DNA of 64,000 nt from a bacterium UBP13_UBA5359. Its GTDB lineage: Bacteria > UBP13 > UBA5359. The stretch spans positions 11,676 through 75,675 of the forward strand of contig DHPR01000011.1 of the NCBI GenBank assembly GCA_002410925.1. Reading direction: 5' to 3'. A program made the position numbers and the translations under genes. Below the pieces are notes generated by a model. The model was not told the origin of the DNA. It saw only the letters and a list, made by a program, of their open reading frames with translations, and searched no databases. Within the stretch, counting starts at the first letter, position 1; the number at the start of each line of letters is the position of its first letter. Shown here one piece after another: positions 1,326 to 9,775 of this stretch.

Positions 1326-2036
1326 TTATCTGCTAAAAAAACTAAGGATTACGCTCGGCTCGCGTATGAAGAGCTTGCCGCCCACATTTGCAGATTCCGT
1401 ATCAAGATGGCGATCGATAATAAAGGCCCTGCCAATGCCTGCCGCCAGCGGAACATCACCGTCTTCGTTCTCGTTATCGCCGATGGTGGCTATCCTCTTC
1501 GGCTCGATACCTGACTGCGCAACGGCTCGCAGCCAGAACTCCCGCAGGGATTTCTGCCCTCTCAGATTATTGGTACCCAGAATACGTCTGAAACAGGGCG
1601 CCGACCAACCGTCACTAAGTCCTGCTCGTCTCAGCTTATAAATACAGCCGACAATGGGATTGTTGCTGGCAATGAAGAGCTTCTTACCCAGACCATGCAA
1701 GGCCCTTACGGTTGCCACAGTATCCTGATAGACGGAAAGATTTTCGTCATGCCACTGACAAATCCTCTCCCATGTTCTGACCGTGGGCAAATGAAATTCG
1801 GCCATAAAATCGGGGTAATCCCACCATATTATCTCGCCGGCCAGGCCTTCAATACTCTTTCCTGCTACGGCGGGATCCCAGCCCTCTTCCACCATTACGT
1901 CCCTGATAACAGCCAGAATAGGATTTCCTCGGATCAATTGCTCTTGCGAATAATCCTTTTCCGGGCAGTTATCAATGAGAGTGCCGTCTATATCCACGAA
2001 AAAGCCCTCGAAATCCCATGGTTTATCTATCGGCAA
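1326..2036 (-). CDS. HAD-superfamily hydrolase/phosphatase
   Basis: Motif I is FFVDIDGTLID. The late motif IGDNENEDGD is also present. There is a 14-nt overlap with the upstream ORF. Confidence 0.75.
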   Translation of the reverse strand: MPIDKPWDFEGFFVDIDGTLIDNCPEKDYSQEQLIRGNPILAVIRDVMVEEGWDPAVAGKSIEGLAGEIIWWDYPDFMAEFHLPTVRTWERICQWHDENLSVYQDTVATVRALHGLGKKLFIASNNPIVGCIYKLRRAGLSDGWSAPCFRRILGTNNLRGQKSLREFWLRAVAQSGIEPKRIATIGDNENEDGDVPLAAGIGRAFIIDRHLDTESANVGGKLFIREPSVILSFFSR

Positions 2037-4032
2037 CTATAATCTCTCCCTTCCACTCCCTGCCGTCGACAAAGGCTGTCATCCCTTTAACCATTTCTGC
2101 GGCCGCCTCTCCATGACAAAAGATCTCCAGACAGGCAACACCTATACGTATATCCACTATGCGTTTGCTCTTGTCTGCAGGCACCGCCAGGCAACGATCC
2201 GTGGCATAAATCATAACCAGCTCTCCAGGATGAATGAATAAAGGTATCTTCTCATTAACTCCCACGGTGATATTGGCCTGGTGCAAACAACCGGGATCGG
2301 TGTTCAGAATATAGATCACCCGCAAATCGTTCTCTCGGTATACGGCAAAACGTACTAGATCACTGGTCTCTATCATGACATCTCCCTGCCAGGCAGCTGA
2401 GAAAAAATCCAGCAGATCGGCATAAAAACGTCTCAGCCCTCGGCAGCCGGGAAATTCGGTGCTGTTGACCAGAAAGGATGCTCCTTTATCGCATTGCTTG
2501 ACCGTCAGAATCGGACTACCGTCCAAAGACTCCAGGTTATCGCTGAAGCTGTCGGAGGCAGCAGCTATGATCTCGGCTCCATCCAGGGCTAGGGCAGCCA
2601 TAGGGAATCCGCCGTCGTCATATTTGGGATCACTCTTCACCGTCCATAAAGGGAAGTGGTAATTGCCGACGGATGGCTGACGCAGGAACTTTATGCCCCA
2701 GTTGTTCCGCAGGCCATCTTTCGGCACAGCTCTGACGCCAAAGAGCTCCCGTAGATCACCGCCGTTAATCAAGGATATCGGTGTGTCTCTTCTAGTCCGG
2801 GTATCCAGATGGGCCAGCGTCGCCAGAAGATGCCCTCCCTGCCTGACATACGCCAGCATCTTTTCATAGAGTTCCGGGGTCATGGTATTCCATCCCAAAA
2901 AGATCAGACAGTCATACTCCTGCATCAGTGACAGCGGGCTTTCAGATGGAATAATGTCCGCCTGCCCCAGCGGCGGATTGCCGGATAGGTCCTGATCTCC
3001 ATATCTGTAACGGAACTCCCACGGCCTTTTTTTATAAAGAACATTGAACAGTTCCCAGGATTCTTCAGCAGTGCCGGATGGAACCCCATTCTCTCCGCGC
3101 TGCCCCCAAACGCAGGATTGCCCCTGAGCAAAGCTATCCAGGTTGCCTTGCACAAAGGCTATACGAGCCTCGGGAAAGCCGGACGGCCGCGGGTTGGATT
3201 TCGCAAACCCGGCCAGCCCGGCCAATTCACGGCGAAAGGCTTTAACTTCCGGCGCATCGGTTGATAGATCCTTTCCCAGGGCTTTGTAATCCATAAGGCC
3301 ATGCTCTGCGTAGATGGGATCGGCGCCGCGCATAAAGGTATGATAAAGCGAAACTCTCCAACGATGCCGCCACAGATCGTCGTGTTCGTTGCCGCCATAC
3401 CATACCATGGCCATGTCGGCACCAAAATGGCCTTTGCCGTAGGCCAGAGTTGCACCCTTAACGGCGGAATGATAGAGCTCGTTGAAGCGATCGTAGGTGA
3501 CCTCCAGATCTACTCGGTCAATGCCGGCCCGATAGAGATATCTAGCTACGGCCGAGGCCTCTATGCAAATCAACGGATGCCGAACAATAGTCTGCTCTGC
3601 CCTGGCGATGGAATCTCTCAGCTTGCTTATAAAGTATCCTTCCGCCTCGGCGGCACAGGCAGTGGGTGGTATGGCATTGGGAGAGCCTTTGATAGTGCTC
3701 TCCGGCCAGTATAGTCCCAGGCCGCCGTATTCGCACATGAAGAGAGTGCCGTCATAAGCTTCGCCAGCTTCGGCTATCAGTCTATCCATCTCTTGCGGCG
3801 TGATCATAGCATAGTTCTCCCGCAGGACATCCCGCAGCCGGCTCCACATCTCATCCATGACGAACTTTATCTTATGCTCCCTGCAAAAGGCTATTACCCG
3901 ACACAACACCTCCACGGGCCACGGCCCGACAAAGAGAACCGTATAATCCCCCAAGCCCTCGTCTCGGATGCGTTCAAGCGTGCTTATCTCATAGGATGCC
4001 TCGCTCATGCCTCCGACTGAAACACGTTTCAT
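2023..4032 (-). CDS. Uncharacterised 669-aa cytoplasmic protein, possibly glycoside-hydrolase-like (weak resemblance to GH42-type TIM barrel plus amidotransferase-like middle domain)
   Basis: Long intact ORF with no signal peptide. The segment YDCLIFLGWNTMTPELYEKMLAYVRQGGHLLATLAHLD resembles the GH42 trimerisation/GATase1-like module. The function is not recognised. Confidence 0.45.
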   Translation of the reverse strand: MKRVSVGGMSEASYEISTLERIRDEGLGDYTVLFVGPWPVEVLCRVIAFCREHKIKFVMDEMWSRLRDVLRENYAMITPQEMDRLIAEAGEAYDGTLFMCEYGGLGLYWPESTIKGSPNAIPPTACAAEAEGYFISKLRDSIARAEQTIVRHPLICIEASAVARYLYRAGIDRVDLEVTYDRFNELYHSAVKGATLAYGKGHFGADMAMVWYGGNEHDDLWRHRWRVSLYHTFMRGADPIYAEHGLMDYKALGKDLSTDAPEVKAFRRELAGLAGFAKSNPRPSGFPEARIAFVQGNLDSFAQGQSCVWGQRGENGVPSGTAEESWELFNVLYKKRPWEFRYRYGDQDLSGNPPLGQADIIPSESPLSLMQEYDCLIFLGWNTMTPELYEKMLAYVRQGGHLLATLAHLDTRTRRDTPISLINGGDLRELFGVRAVPKDGLRNNWGIKFLRQPSVGNYHFPLWTVKSDPKYDDGGFPMAALALDGAEIIAAASDSFSDNLESLDGSPILTVKQCDKGASFLVNSTEFPGCRGLRRFYADLLDFFSAAWQGDVMIETSDLVRFAVYRENDLRVIYILNTDPGCLHQANITVGVNEKIPLFIHPGELVMIYATDRCLAVPADKSKRIVDIRIGVACLEIFCHGEAAAEMVKGMTAFVDGREWKGEIIVADR

Positions 4033-4095: not shown

Positions 4096-4854
4096 TTATT
4101 CACCATTATTACTCTTGAATTTTTTTGTTTCAACCTTGATGCTCTCTATGGCCTTATCGGCGCTGATCATATTCAGCCTGACCTTGTCCAGCTCCGGATA
4201 TAATACTTGAGATTGCCAGGCAGAGAACCAGGTGAACCTGGCAGAGCTGGGAACGAATTCATCTATGTATTTATAGAAGGCCTGGTAGTTCTTATCAGGT
4301 GAAGAGAAGCGCCGTTCCGCAACCAGCTTATCTGCCGGTATAGCAAGCTTGCCTCCGGCCAGAATCTCCGCACCCGGGCCATAGGCGGCAAATTTAACGA
4401 ATTCCCATGCCTGACGAGGATACTTTGTCCGGTTATATACCACCAGCACGCCGGAGCCTTCTATTACTTTGCGCTCTCCATCCTTATTCACGGGCACCGG
4501 GGCCAGATCCCACTCAAAGGCGCTGATATCCTTCAGGGTAGACAGTGTCCATGATGAAGCTACCAGCATAGCCAATCTGCCAGTCATGAAGAACTCCAAT
4601 TCGCTGCGGTAGGCATTCGGCAGCTCAGCCGCTGAAGGTGCTACCTTGTACTTATTGCGCATATCATTGACAAAAGTGACAGCCTCTCTGACCTGCCGGC
4701 TGTCACCCGTAAAATTGCCCCGAGCATCGAACCACGCTCCACCCCAATAACCAACGGCCGGGCCTATGCCAGGGGGTATTGAGCCATAACTTACAATTCG
4801 GCCATTCTTCCTGACAGTAAGGGTCCTAGCTGCCCTCTCACCCTTCACCCGCAC
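4096..4854 (-). pseudogene. C-terminal ~60% of a family-1 extracellular solute-binding protein (sugar ABC type), lacking signal peptide and N-lobe
   Basis: The sequence is typical of the second half of sugar SBPs (RLAMLVASSWTLSTL, WDLAPVPV, GSGVLVVYNRTKYPRQAWEFVKF). It begins mid-domain. No lipobox or signal peptide is present, and no permease or ATPase gene is nearby. Confidence 0.55.
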
Positions 4855-4875: not shown

Positions 4876-6303
4876 CTACTTGCCCATCTCTACCACCTTG
4901 CCCGGATTGAGAATATTATCCGGGTCAAGCGCTTTTTTGATGGCCGTCATCAGATCGAGATTAGCGGCAGGCGACATCGCTTCCAGATGGTCTCTCTTGG
5001 CCAGCCCTATGCCGTGTTCCCCTGAAATCACTCCGCCACGAGCAGCGGCATCAGCAAAAAGATCCCGCCGGACCTGCTCATGCATCTCTCGCCATCCGGG
5101 CAGATCTTCACCAATAATTCCATCATCCAGGCGGCAGCGCAGTGAATGAGTGTGGACATTGCCGTCGGCTGCGTGACCGTAGGTGGGAAGCGATATGTTA
5201 TACCGAGCTTCCAATTCATGAATAAAACCGATGTGTCCGGCTATTTCAGACCTGGGAACGCAGATGTCGAAGAGTTCTACCGTGCCGGGACGCAACGCTT
5301 CATAAAGCATGCTGCGCAGTTCCAGTATATCGGCCTGGCGGCTGTCATCCTCTGCCAGCAGCATATCCAGAGCTCCGCCGGCCTCAGCTATGGCAGCCAG
5401 ATCCTCTGCCTGCCCCAGCACTTCATCCTCACTGCGCCCATCCAGAATAAGCATCAGCGAGGCCGCCCCGTCACGAGCCGGCCAGCTTCTATCGAGCAGC
5501 CTTTCTGCACAGCGTATTACGGAGTGCTCCAGAAATTCCACAGCACACGGTATAATATCTGCTTTGAGTATCTTCGGCACAACGGAAACGGCCTCTGCTA
5601 CGCCGGCAAAGGGAGCTACCAGAGTCTTGCTTACACTTGGAGGCGGCAGCAGGGATATTGTAACCCTGGTGATTATACCCAGTGTGCCTTCAGAGCCGAT
5701 CATCAGATCCAATAAATTGTAGCCGGAGCTGGATTTAATAAACTTGCCCCCCAGATTTGCTATTCTACCGTCAGCCAGAACAACCTGAAGTCCGATAACA
5801 TATCGCTTCACCGTACCGTACTTGACGGCGCGTGCGCCACCTGCGTTGGCGGCTGCGGCACCACCGATAAAGGCTCCTTCATCTCCCGGATGAGGCGGGA
5901 AGAAGAGCTTCATCTCCTTTACATGCTGATAAAGATCATGCAGAGTCATGCCCGCCTGGACGGTAATGGTATGATTATCCGAATCAGCATCCACAACGCC
6001 ATTCAATCTATTCAGACTGAGCACGACTCCACCTGCCGCAGGGACGCACCCGGCAGAGAGACCCGTTCCTCCTCCGCGAGCAGTCAAAGGTATTTTCATC
6101 TCCGCACACAACCTGACGATAGCCGACGTTTCCTCTTCTGACCCGGGGCGAACAACAGCTGCCGGCATACAGGCAAACTCTTCCATGGCGTATTCATCGC
6201 GAGAAAAGGGCTCGATATCCTCAAAAGATATCAATACATTTTCACTTCCTACGATATTTTCAGCTCGCTCGATCCATTTTTCAATATTTGGCCGAGTAGT
6301 CAT
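4876..6303 (-). CDS. FAD-linked oxidase, GlcD / D-lactate (D-2-hydroxyacid) dehydrogenase family
   Basis: The FAD_binding_4-type N-domain (TARGGGTGLSAG) is present. The C-terminal GGVISGEHGIGLAKR motif is typical of the GlcD family. Confidence 0.85.
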   Translation of the reverse strand: MTTRPNIEKWIERAENIVGSENVLISFEDIEPFSRDEYAMEEFACMPAAVVRPGSEEETSAIVRLCAEMKIPLTARGGGTGLSAGCVPAAGGVVLSLNRLNGVVDADSDNHTITVQAGMTLHDLYQHVKEMKLFFPPHPGDEGAFIGGAAAANAGGARAVKYGTVKRYVIGLQVVLADGRIANLGGKFIKSSSGYNLLDLMIGSEGTLGIITRVTISLLPPPSVSKTLVAPFAGVAEAVSVVPKILKADIIPCAVEFLEHSVIRCAERLLDRSWPARDGAASLMLILDGRSEDEVLGQAEDLAAIAEAGGALDMLLAEDDSRQADILELRSMLYEALRPGTVELFDICVPRSEIAGHIGFIHELEARYNISLPTYGHAADGNVHTHSLRCRLDDGIIGEDLPGWREMHEQVRRDLFADAAARGGVISGEHGIGLAKRDHLEAMSPAANLDLMTAIKKALDPDNILNPGKVVEMGK

Positions 6304-6329
6304 TTCGCTTTTTCCCCCTTGTTTATTCG

Positions 6330-7637
6330 TTAGTTTTCCTCCTTGATATAAGGTATGGTCATCGGTCCCTCCGGCAAAACGGCTATGGAAGAACGGCCTC
6401 CCAGCTCATCCATCTCTGCTGCCAGGCGTATTTCAATATTTTCAACCGCTTCCATATATGCCTGTGATACCTCATGTGCCTCCAGACCGGAATAGAGAGC
6501 TATCCGAGCTCGGGAAGCTATAATTGCCAATAGTTGTGCCTCCCACTGATCGAGCATGCCCTCTTTCGAAATCCTTACTTGAGCTAACAAATCCTCCGGA
6601 GAGCTATGAGTTGTCAACAGGCTCTTGAAATTGCCGTGATCCGGGAAACCATCACGGCACTCAGCGGCACATAGTATAAGCCCCCCTGAACGAACAATCC
6701 TGCCGGCTGCCGACATACCTTTTACCGTCTGATAAAGATTCTGATCCAGCGGATAACCGCCGTTGGTGGTTATCACTATATCGTAATGATCGGGAACAGA
6801 TACCATGGCGCTTTCACGACAAAAACGGCAGGCCTCTTCATGACAGGCTATCGGTTCTCCGGCAAACAATCCGGTGATATGACGATCACGGTTCAAAGTT
6901 ACGTTGATGCAAAAATCCGCCGGCTGCAAAGCACCGCATTCTCTGATCATGTTCTGGGTAGGATTGCCATCAAGCATACCCCAGGTGGAGCGAGAATGAT
7001 CGATCATTTCAGCTCCGTGAAAGTATATGATATCCTCTATGCCGAGTATCCCCGGGCAGACGGCTTTGTATCCCCCAGAAAATCCGGCCATAAAATGCGG
7101 CTCAACAAAACCTAATAGAATGCGTTTATCCGCCCGAATATATTCACGATTCATCCTTATGCAACGTCCTCCGCGAAGTCGACCGGCACTGTCCAGCTTA
7201 TCCGCTTTGAAAGCATCGTGATTGACGACGTGATATCGGCTGATTATCTCCCGCCCCAGCATAGCTGCCATCTCATCTGAATTACAGGCTCGGTGTGACC
7301 CGGTACCGATGATTATCGTTAATCTATCAGGCGATACATGCCCCATCTCTTTCATCAGCCAGGGTATGACCCTGTTACCGGGGAAAGGCCTTGTAATATC
7401 AGGTATTACTACCGCCACGTTCTCTTCAGAGGAGATCATTTCTCTAAGCGGCAATGAGCCTGAGGGAGCTCTGACAGCCTTGCTGAAGGCCTCTCTTTCG
7501 TCAGGTAATCCGGCGGTATATACGGGTTCGATAACGTTGATATCGGTATCTGGCAGATTTACCATCAGATGGCCGCCACCATATTTTAACGCTACTCTCA
7601 TTTTTCCTCTCACTATTTCAAAGGTATTTTCCCGCAA
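6330..7637 (-). CDS. larA: LarA-family nickel-pincer-dependent 2-hydroxyacid racemase/epimerase
   Basis: The motifs IIIGTGSHR and EPHFMAGFSGGYK match the catalytic His and the cofactor-tethering Lys regions of lactate racemase. The size (435 aa) is typical. Confidence 0.8.
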   Translation of the reverse strand: MRENTFEIVRGKMRVALKYGGGHLMVNLPDTDINVIEPVYTAGLPDEREAFSKAVRAPSGSLPLREMISSEENVAVVIPDITRPFPGNRVIPWLMKEMGHVSPDRLTIIIGTGSHRACNSDEMAAMLGREIISRYHVVNHDAFKADKLDSAGRLRGGRCIRMNREYIRADKRILLGFVEPHFMAGFSGGYKAVCPGILGIEDIIYFHGAEMIDHSRSTWGMLDGNPTQNMIRECGALQPADFCINVTLNRDRHITGLFAGEPIACHEEACRFCRESAMVSVPDHYDIVITTNGGYPLDQNLYQTVKGMSAAGRIVRSGGLILCAAECRDGFPDHGNFKSLLTTHSSPEDLLAQVRISKEGMLDQWEAQLLAIIASRARIALYSGLEAHEVSQAYMEAVENIEIRLAAEMDELGGRSSIAVLPEGPMTIPYIKEEN

Positions 7638-7761
7638 CAGCTTCAGACGTTGCAGCTTTTATCAGCCACGCCCCCAAATTCCTGCTGCCGATTCGCAGAT
7701 AGCTCAAGCTATTGTAGATTGTATACATTACCGTATGGAGCCTTATCGGCCTATATAGTTC

Positions 7762-8442
7762 TTAGGACTCCGCTTTTAAAGTTTTCATTATATTGCTTCT
7801 GGTATGAAGAATATGCTCCCTCATGGCTTCTGCCGCCGCCGTTACATCTCTCTTTTCAAGAGCCTCTATGATTTGTATATGCTCTTCAAGAGCCTGCCTG
7901 ATCTGTTTATCCTCTCTGGCTATGACGGTAGTCCTGAAGAAATTAACCATGTTACCCAGAGATTCTATGGTTGCAGCCAGGCGTTTGTTACCGGAATGCT
8001 CGGCAATGCAGTAGTGAAATTCCCGGTCAAAAGCATGGCTTCCTTCATTATGGCCTGATATTATCTCCTGGCGGCTCTTCTCAGCTTCGATCCTGAGTTC
8101 CTTGATAATGGCCTTCGGTATCCGCAGCGTTGCCAGAGTTACAGCCAGCTCCTCCAGAACTGCTCTGATATCGTAAATCTCAACTACATCCTGCAACTCC
8201 AGTTTCTTGACATACATGCCTTTTCGCGGAAGAAGCTCCACCAGTTCATCCTTGGCCAGAGACTTCATCGCTTCTCTGACCGGCGTCCGGCTGACACCCA
8301 GTTGCCGTGCTACCTCCTCTTCAGTAAGGCGGTCCCCGGGAGCCAGCTTCCCGGTGAGGATCTGCTCTGTTATGATCTCGTATATTCGATGATCTATATT
8401 GGTATGCTCTATTTGCGACAGATTAAATGACATGGCAACCAC
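7762..8442 (-). CDS. GntR-family (FadR/FCD subfamily) transcriptional regulator
   Basis: The N-terminal wHTH reads LTEEEVARQLGVSRTPVREAMKSLAKDELVELLPRKGMYV. The C-terminal domain is helical and FCD-like. Confidence 0.85.
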   Translation of the reverse strand: MVAMSFNLSQIEHTNIDHRIYEIITEQILTGKLAPGDRLTEEEVARQLGVSRTPVREAMKSLAKDELVELLPRKGMYVKKLELQDVVEIYDIRAVLEELAVTLATLRIPKAIIKELRIEAEKSRQEIISGHNEGSHAFDREFHYCIAEHSGNKRLAATIESLGNMVNFFRTTVIAREDKQIRQALEEHIQIIEALEKRDVTAAAEAMREHILHTRSNIMKTLKAES

Positions 8443-8602
8443 CCAGCTTTAATTGTGCATTGTATACAACATTCGACGTTATCAGAAAAGTTCCTCTTTT
8501 CCTTTACAGCTTGCATAAAGCATCGCAAGTTGAACCGGGGCGACAGCCGCCATAGAAAGATGTCCGAGAAAACTAAGCGCTAGAAGCAGCGATTAGTTGC
8601 CG

Positions 8603-9775
8603 TCAGAGACGGGCTACATCGCTCTCCCTGGCTGCACGCGCCACAGCTTCTGCTACAGCCGGTCCTACGCGCCTGTCAAAGGCTTCAGGGATGATATAGT
8701 CGGGCTTCAGATCCTCCGGCTTTACCAGAGCGGCTATGGCTTCCGAGGCGGCCATCTTCATGGCATGGTTTATCTCCCTGGCTCTGACATCCAAAGCGCC
8801 GCGAAAGATACCCGGAAAAGCCAACACATTATTGATCTGGTTTGGATAATCAGAGCGCCCGGTGCCTATTACTGAAGCCCCGGCAGACTGGGCTTCTTCC
8901 GGTGTTATCTCCGGTACCGGGTTAGCCATAGCAAAGATAATGGGGTCGTCGGCCATACGCCTGATCATATCCGGCTTCAGAACTCCGGCTACAGAGACTC
9001 CGATAAAGAGGTCCATGCCCTCGATGATCTCCTCCAGATTTCCTTTTAGGCCCTCTCTATTGGTCTCCCCGGCCAGCTTCTCCTTGAAGCTATTGTTGCC
9101 GGAGCGTCCTGTATAGAGAGCTCCCCTGGTATCGCATATCACTATGTCATGAACTCCGGACGCCAATAGGTAACGTGAAATAGCTGTACCGGCCGCCCCC
9201 GCGCCATTCATTAAAACTCGTAAATCCCCCATCTCCTTGCCGGTTATCTTCAAGGCATTGATAAGTCCGGCCAGCACTACTACAGCTGTGCCGTGCTGGT
9301 CATCGTGAAAAACAGGAATATCCAATCGTTTTTTAAGCTCATCCTCTATATAAAAACACTCCGGAGCCGCTATATCTTCGAGATTTATGCCTCCAAAAGT
9401 AGGAGCTATGGCTTCAACAGTTTCGACGATGGAATCCGGATTTCCGGCATTAAGGCATATCGGAAAGGCATCCACATTGCCGAAAGTTTTGAAGAGCACT
9501 GCTTTACCTTCCATGACCGGCATACCGGCCTCCGCACCTATCTTTCCCAGACCCAGCACCGCCGTGCCATCCGTAACCACCGCCACCAGATTCCCTCTGG
9601 CCGTATAATCCCAGACTCTATCCGGATGGTGGTAGATTTCCATACAGGCGTCAGCTACACCCGGCGTATATGCCAGACTCAGATCATAATTATTCTCTAC
9701 CGGAACCTTGCTGATAACCTCTATCTTTCCTTTGTGCTCCAGATGCAGCTTCAGAGCTTCTTCCCTTATTCCCAT
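8603..9775 (-). CDS. NAD(P)-dependent malic enzyme (short, ~390-aa type)
   Basis: The N-terminus REEALKLHLEHKGKIEV...LSLAYTPGVA and the Rossmann motif NGAGAAGTAI are both present. Confidence 0.85.
   Translation of the reverse strand: MGIREEALKLHLEHKGKIEVISKVPVENNYDLSLAYTPGVADACMEIYHHPDRVWDYTARGNLVAVVTDGTAVLGLGKIGAEAGMPVMEGKAVLFKTFGNVDAFPICLNAGNPDSIVETVEAIAPTFGGINLEDIAAPECFYIEDELKKRLDIPVFHDDQHGTAVVVLAGLINALKITGKEMGDLRVLMNGAGAAGTAISRYLLASGVHDIVICDTRGALYTGRSGNNSFKEKLAGETNREGLKGNLEEIIEGMDLFIGVSVAGVLKPDMIRRMADDPIIFAMANPVPEITPEEAQSAGASVIGTGRSDYPNQINNVLAFPGIFRGALDVRAREINHAMKMAASEAIAALVKPEDLKPDYIIPEAFDRRVGPAVAEAVARAARESDVARL

Follow-up and report, generated by a model that had tools for sequence, protein, structure and literature searches.

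The window analysed here is the whole stretch of 64,000 nucleotides (64 kb) from the bacterium UBP13_UBA5359, part of contig C37 in an assembly of 2.25 Mb that consists of 40 contigs with a completeness of 98.4%. We focused on a gene for a racemase of the LarA family (larA), together with the gene for a GlcD-type flavoenzyme that follows it (here called lctD) and the GntR/FCD regulator gene that precedes it. The genes dnaE, malic enzyme, regulator, larA and lctD are arranged in this order and in the same direction on the minus strand (Table 1). An earlier note on this DNA had described a LarA homologue, a GlcD-type oxidase, a GntR/FCD regulator and a malic enzyme of 390 amino acids (aa) on one strand, and all four were recovered on the minus strand where it had placed them. 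The GTGSHR and EPHFMAGFSGGYK motifs that it had read in LarA are both present in the translation.

Together, larA and lctD look like one transcription unit: only 26 nucleotides (nt) lie between the stop codon of larA and the start of lctD, which has its own AAGGGGG ribosome-binding site. The longest larA frame opens with the TTG codon at 7637, but translation probably begins at the ATG at 7601, because this codon is preceded by GAGAGGAAAA and the resulting protein of 423 aa matches the 91% and 77% identical relatives over their full length. The regulator gene might instead start at an in-frame ATG at position 8433, and its product reached no NCBIfam equivalog cut-off. The three genomes of the genus share the gene order from dnaE to lctD, but this says little because they are close kin; the regulator gene is conserved beside larA in L014, L015 and L052.

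In each of the three genomes, one copy of the motif TGTATACAAT-NN-ACAAT lies upstream of the regulator gene and another upstream of larA. Both copies keep their position and sequence in the relatives with 91% (L015) and 77% (L014) identity, the second copy being identical in the two, while the flanking intergenic DNA diverges. GT-N-AC palindromes are typical of GntR/FadR regulators, and the core of the motif, TTGTATACAA, has this form. Its 10-mer occurs six times in the genome, counting both strands, against about four expected. There is thus no enrichment, and the argument for an operator is based on position and conservation, not on count. The two copies are putative operators of an autoregulated unit, which would comprise the GntR gene and then larA-lctD.

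A third TTGTATACAA palindrome was found on contig C10 at 18897 (L010:4890-9200), where it overlaps the -10 region and the start of an operon. Besides a second GntR/FCD regulator, this operon encodes a GFO/IDH/MocA oxidoreductase, an HpcH-family aldolase, an SDR protein and an aldo/keto reductase, and a [FeFe] hydrogenase gene lies just upstream of it. The second regulator shares 30% identity with that of the window, and the presence of the operon's own paralogue explains this palindrome without a link to larA.

Table 1. Features in and around the larA-lctD locus (window coordinates; FAD, flavin adenine dinucleotide)
Feature	Position	Strand	Length	Matches and remarks
dnaE	13286-9690	minus		
Malic enzyme, small-type	9775-8603	minus	390 aa	PF00390 3e-32; PF03949 4e-26
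Operator-like site 1 (putative)	8452-8469	minus		TTGTATACAATGCACAAT; 10-27 nt upstream of the regulator gene; based on sequence and conserved position
GntR/FCD (FadR-subfamily) regulator, LctA counterpart	8442-7762	minus	226 aa	PF00392 1e-19; PF07729 7e-27
Operator-like site 2 (putative)	7711-7727	minus		TGTATACAATCTACAAT; about 110 nt upstream of the larA start; based on sequence and conservation
LarA homologue, nickel-pincer-nucleotide-dependent 2-hydroxyacid racemase family	7601-6330 (frame 7637-6330)	minus	423 aa	PF09861 (Lar_N) 8.5e-53; PF21113 (LarA_C) 1e-30
LctD-type FAD enzyme (most likely), VAO/PCMH fold	6303-4876	minus	475 aa	PF01565 (FAD_binding_4) 4e-40; PF02913 (FAD-oxidase_C) 1e-50
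Open reading frame after lctD	4096-4854	minus	252 aa	C-terminal half only of an ABC solute-binding protein
Open reading frame	2023-4032	minus	669 aa	No Pfam or NCBIfam match
Open reading frame	216-1076	minus	286 aa	Two HNH_repeat matches

Substrate pocket of LarA and genes for its cofactor

LarA was aligned to 5HUQ, 6C1W, 2YJG and 9EIA, and it was placed by means of NCBIfam models, the PDB alignments and published diagnostic residues. In the alignment to the solved structures it keeps R75, H108, H174, K184, H200, Y294, Q295, V297 and K298. These include the two catalytic histidines (H108 and H174), the lysine that tethers the nickel-pincer nucleotide (K184) and the nickel ligand (H200), so the loss of catalytic His or Lys residues that the earlier note had considered did not occur. 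Lactate racemases carry F, F, W and E/Q at positions 175, 176, 358 and 359, whereas in malate racemases the last two of these are H/Q and K, the lysine pairing with the second carboxylate of malate (PMC11770544). Mar2 has Y-K after the catalytic His and a Q before K298 (PMC7583248), and the broad-spectrum enzyme of Isosphaera has L, M, W and Q at the four positions, its smaller loop residues widening the pocket (PMC11851776). The pocket of the window LarA reads F, M, W and E. It matches the lactate racemases at three of the four positions and also keeps V297, and the Glu at 359 argues against a dicarboxylate substrate.

All 121 sequences compared (the query and its 120 nearest database relatives) share the same catalytic residues; 88 of them have the pocket FMWE and 26 have FMWQ. 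LarA therefore appears to sit in a large FMW(E/Q) branch beside the proven lactate racemases, a branch apparently without any characterised member. The best LarA-family model was NF033504 (lactate racemase, cut-off 460) with 438 bits, a lead of more than 115 bits. The malate-racemase models NF052593/NF052595 gave 322 bits for the LarAH6 family (cut-off 500) and 302 bits for the LarAH5 family (cut-off 462), and the LarAH10 family model gave 247 bits (cut-off 540). Moreover, some members of the clade of LarA do pass NF033504 (best E-value 8e-145). As a result, LarA is predicted to be a lactate or short-chain 2-hydroxyacid racemase. Other small 2-hydroxyacids close to lactate, 2-hydroxybutyrate or glycerate among them, are probably accepted as well; enzymes of the lactate-racemase group are promiscuous, and some favour one or the other of these two acids (PMC11770544).

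The earlier note had also considered a D/L-malate route, in which LarA would turn D-malate into L-malate for the adjacent malic enzyme. In fact, the malic enzyme gene is the next one upstream on the same strand, in an order conserved in the genus, and the pairwise phmmer scores of LarA to Mar2 (207 bits) and to the LarA of Lactiplantibacillus plantarum (212 bits) are similar. However, the H/Q and K of malate racemases are replaced by W and E in LarA, and the Glu would repel the second carboxylate. The LarA loop is F-M and not Y-K as in Mar2, V297 stands where Mar2 has Q, and the scores of both malate-racemase models are far below their cut-offs. The gene organization points in the same direction. 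The malic enzyme gene (448 bits for the protein against PDB 5CEE) overlaps the end of dnaE with its first 86 nt, out of frame (9690-9775), as it does in three related contigs. It lies upstream of the putative operator of the regulator, outside the operator-bounded unit, and in the 77% relative it is split off from the GntR gene by a hicA-hicB toxin-antitoxin pair inserted on the opposite strand (L014, 2839-3323). Because of this overlap, position and insertion, the malic enzyme is probably a bystander, presumably with an unrelated housekeeping role, and not part of the module. The malate-racemase reading of LarA is therefore rejected on its pocket, on the scores of the models and on the arrangement of the genes, and we consider the malate route extremely improbable.

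The cofactor genes larB, larC and larE are absent from the 64-kb window, as the earlier note had stated; all of them are present elsewhere in the genome, so its reservation that they might be missing altogether no longer applies. The larB gene on contig C9 scored 300 bits against an NCBIfam cut-off of 175, and it adjoins larC, which is full-length and fused; larC scored 215 bits (LarC1) and 120 bits (LarC2), above the NCBIfam cut-offs, and 453 bits against Pfam Ni_insertion. The larE gene on contig C40 scored 316 bits (NCBIfam cut-off 150). Its product carries the SGGVDS loop and the CXXC-C cysteine set, which marks the catalytic [4Fe-4S] type of LarE and not the sacrificial type (PMC9283937). 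The possibility that LarA is an orphan without cofactor genes is ruled out by these three genes.

We also noted that larE (C40, L013:4310-5206) sits beside a gene for a MoeB/ThiF-like adenylyltransferase. Contig C19 (L012:4832-8494) encodes another LarA homologue, distantly related and 415 aa long, between a D-mannonate-oxidoreductase-like SDR gene and a 6-phosphogluconate dehydrogenase gene. The best match of this homologue is a putative hexonate-epimerase model with 175 bits, below the cut-off, and it is likely a gluconate/mannonate-type epimerase. With two LarA homologues in the genome, the cofactor pathway would serve two client enzymes.

The flavoenzyme, its possible electron acceptor and the proposed lactate route

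The top PDB match of the flavoenzyme is LctD of the Ldh-EtfAB complex of Acetobacterium woodii (7QH2 chain C) with 352 bits. This is 133 bits ahead of glycolate oxidase (219 bits), and mammalian LDHD (204 bits) and D-2-hydroxyglutarate dehydrogenase (D2HGDH, 178 bits) follow. Ten active-site residues of LctD have been named, including the metal ligands and the catalytic base (PMC9232219). The window enzyme keeps L80, R328, L332, D346, H377, H384, E422 and H423, among them the metal ligands H377, H384 and E422 and the catalytic base H423, and E344 aligns in an ambiguous two-residue gap. Judging from these residues and scores, the flavoenzyme is most likely an LctD-type, FAD-dependent and metal-assisted D-lactate dehydrogenase.

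As to its electron acceptor, the genome holds exactly one EtfBA pair, located on contig C13 directly after an acyl-CoA dehydrogenase gene, and this acd-etfBA trio is conserved in the genus. The EtfA protein has an N-terminal ferredoxin domain with two CxxCxxCxxxC cluster motifs. The pair scored 449 bits against CarE and 270 bits against CarD, and 320 bits against LctC and 235 bits against LctB, while non-bifurcating Etfs gave at most 170 bits; the C13 EtfAB thus matches the bifurcating type best. A predicted complex of EtfB, EtfA residues 250-395 and LctD reached a score of 0.60, against 0.00 for the best of three controls, which lends weak support; since the similar complex 7QH2 is solved, the pass may reflect memory of it and not binding. 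In the calibration of this prediction, the mark was reached by 58 of 80 solved complexes and by 2 of 110 mismatched pairs, and scores of 0.60 or lower were given by only 7 of those 80 solved complexes and by both passing mismatches. The runs agreed in at least 61% of the contacts, and the predicted local distance difference test (pLDDT) of the partner was at least 86. We would give an even chance to LctD handing its electrons to this only EtfAB of the genome. In that case the cell would reduce NAD+ with reduced ferredoxin as it oxidises lactate, the two being coupled as they are in the Ldh-EtfAB complex of A. woodii.

Two further ideas were rejected. First, the only CCG/GlcF-like Fe-S protein of the genome (Fer4_8 and CCG domains) overlaps its own GlcD paralogue on contig C9 (L067:5254-7814); being tied to this paralogue, it is unlikely to be a shared partner of the window LctD. 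This GlcD-GlcF pair lies in a sugar-acid cluster with an FGGY kinase, a KduI/IolB protein and a GH1 enzyme. Second, acryloyl-CoA reductase models are the best ones for the acyl-CoA dehydrogenase (471 bits, cut-off 640) and for EtfA (388 bits, cut-off 600). Lactoyl-CoA dehydratase has two HGD-D-family subunits, and the genome has one HGD-D-family gene only, so an acrylate pathway with this dehydratase was judged unlikely.

Taken together, the locus probably encodes a repressor-controlled larA-lctD pair that converts L-lactate to D-lactate by a nickel enzyme and D-lactate further to pyruvate. The GntR/FCD repressor would control itself and the two-gene larA-lctD operon. LarB, LarC and LarE, encoded by unlinked genes, would make the nickel-pincer nucleotide that is loaded into LarA. 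LarA would interconvert L- and D-lactate, and the D-specific LctD would oxidise D-lactate to pyruvate. We infer that lactate is the physiological substrate. The proposal of the earlier note that L-lactate is converted to D-lactate for the FAD dehydrogenase thus gains from the lactate-racemase-like pocket, the LctD-type enzyme, the spacing of 26 nt and the shared operator motif.

The physiology deduced from the genome is consistent with this route. Several 2-oxoacid:ferredoxin oxidoreductases and a [FeFe] hydrogenase indicate an anaerobe with ferredoxin metabolism. Neither an NAD-dependent L-lactate dehydrogenase nor a LutABC-type set was found in the genome, nor was any convincing L-lactate dehydrogenase dependent on flavin mononucleotide, so the racemase is the only visible route by which L-lactate could reach a dehydrogenase. 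The same racemase logic explains why Anaerostipes hadrus, which is without lctF, uses D-lactate only (PMC8914356).

Several observations nevertheless weigh against the lactate route. LarA stays 22 bits short of the NF033504 cut-off, and its Met in place of F176 is one departure from a canonical lactate racemase, as in the Isosphaera enzyme (PMC11851776). Most LarA relatives at about 50% identity have no LctD neighbour and no consistent neighbourhood. Tyr386 of LctD is replaced by a His that is invariant across the clade of the window enzyme. The LctD relatives that come closest outside the genus share 66% and 48% identity and have unrelated neighbours, with no Etf, LarA or GntR gene nearby; LctD-type enzymes occur also without a cis-encoded Etf. 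No etf genes are present in the window or in cis with lctD. Three findings speak against the Etf coupling in particular: the promoter region of acd-etfBA has no TGTATACA motif, these LctD relatives have no Etf nearby, and the only GlcF-like Fe-S protein belongs to another GlcD paralogue. Finally, the LctP-family lactate permease (PF02652) had no match in the 98.4%-complete genome; lactate may enter via another carrier or arise inside the cell.

Part of these points would fit the same two-enzyme logic with another small 2-hydroxyacid (glycerate, 2-hydroxybutyrate or 2-hydroxyisovalerate), the flavoenzyme standing alone with a non-Etf acceptor. The Met at 176 enlarges the pocket, the lactate-racemase group is promiscuous, LarA is below the equivalog cut-off, close LctD relatives lack Etf linkage and a lactate permease was not found. 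However, LarA shares F175, W358 and E359 with 2YJG and other proven lactate racemases, the flavoenzyme is by a wide margin closest in structure to LctD and keeps the lactate-binding residues, and all characterised enzymes of the lactate-racemase group racemise lactate too. We consider a different substrate unlikely.

Alternatively, the module could salvage lactate made inside the cell, either L-lactaldehyde/L-lactate from fucose or rhamnose-type deoxy-sugars, or D-lactate from methylglyoxal or N-acetylmuramic acid. Such salvage would explain the missing permease. It also agrees with the many genes for glycan breakdown, which include GH130 and UxaE in the window as well as GH1 and sugar-acid clusters in other parts of the genome. 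In addition, the third palindrome lies at the head of an operon whose products include an HpcH-family aldolase, an SDR protein and an aldo/keto reductase. But this palindrome is accounted for by the GntR paralogue of the C10 operon, the aldolase reaches no equivalog cut-off, and other transporter families could import lactate. We regard internal salvage as rather doubtful. This applies equally to its form in which the pair would handle L-lactate derived from deoxy-sugars, with LctD either Etf-free or sharing the single EtfAB with the acyl-CoA dehydrogenase. Lactate turnover by the larA-lctD pair remains our preferred interpretation.

On the downstream side, synteny with the close relatives stops at lctD. 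The 252-aa frame directly after lctD is probably a truncated remnant of the solute-binding protein gene, and it is followed by the 669-aa frame; neither of the two is syntenic in the close relatives. The HNH_repeat matches in the 286-aa frame are homing-endonuclease-associated, and no further domain was found in it.

Comparison with known lactate systems

The closest known system is the lct cluster, namely lctABCDEF of A. woodii and lctE-D-B-C-G-F-A of Anaerobutyricum soehngenii. The lct clusters of A. woodii and Anaerobutyricum comprise a regulator, LctD, EtfBA, an acyl-CoA dehydrogenase and a racemase (PMC8914356). Like them, the window locus clusters a GntR/FadR-type regulator, an LctD-type FAD D-lactate dehydrogenase and a LarA-type racemase (LctF). 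In the lct cluster, LctF lets the D-specific dehydrogenase use L-lactate, and the same logic would apply here. The genome also encodes a bifurcating-type EtfBA beside an acyl-CoA dehydrogenase, in the manner of lctG-lctB-lctC of Anaerobutyricum (PMC8914356), but on C13. Unlike the lct cluster, the window locus is thus without etfBA and the acyl-CoA dehydrogenase gene, which lie on another contig and have no operator motif, and no LctP-type permease was found anywhere in the genome. Either the locus moved EtfBA and the acyl-CoA dehydrogenase away or it never gathered them. The hosts also differ. Those of the lct clusters belong to Bacillota, while the window comes from a phylum-level lineage for which a search of the reference set returned three genomes only, all from one genus; the host is a member of a very sparsely sampled deep lineage.

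At the protein level, the flavoenzyme resembles 7QH2 (LctBCD) in having FAD_binding_4 and FAD-oxidase_C domains and in keeping H377, H384, E422, H423 and R328, and EtfA shares the N-terminal ferredoxin domain. They differ from 7QH2 in the His at Tyr386, in an EtfA that has two CxxCxxCxxxC motifs and is nearer to CarE (449 bits) than to LctC (320 bits) and in a complex that is only weakly predicted here. The window LarA has the catalytic, nickel-pincer-nucleotide-binding and carboxylate-binding residues as well as F175, V297 and W358 in common with the LarA of L. plantarum (5HUQ) and of Thermoanaerobacterium thermosaccharolyticum (2YJG), and its E359 is as in 2YJG. It departs from both in having Met at F176 and in its NF033504 score (438 bits, below 460). 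The best PDB score of LarA, 230 bits, was obtained with LarAH2/Sar of Isosphaera pallida (9EIA), a broad-spectrum racemase of short-chain 2-hydroxyacids. The two enzymes share the Met at the second loop position and a W followed by a polar residue at 358/359. However, the first loop residue is Phe and not Leu as in Sar, and position 359 is Glu, where Sar has a flexible Gln that confers plasticity.

These results allow a firm annotation of the LarA homologue: its cofactor pathway is encoded in the genome, a malate-racemase function is rejected, and it is paired with a probable D-lactate dehydrogenase, as in Acetobacterium and gut butyrate producers. The larA-lctD pair is most likely a pared-down copy of the lactate-utilisation cluster known from anaerobes.

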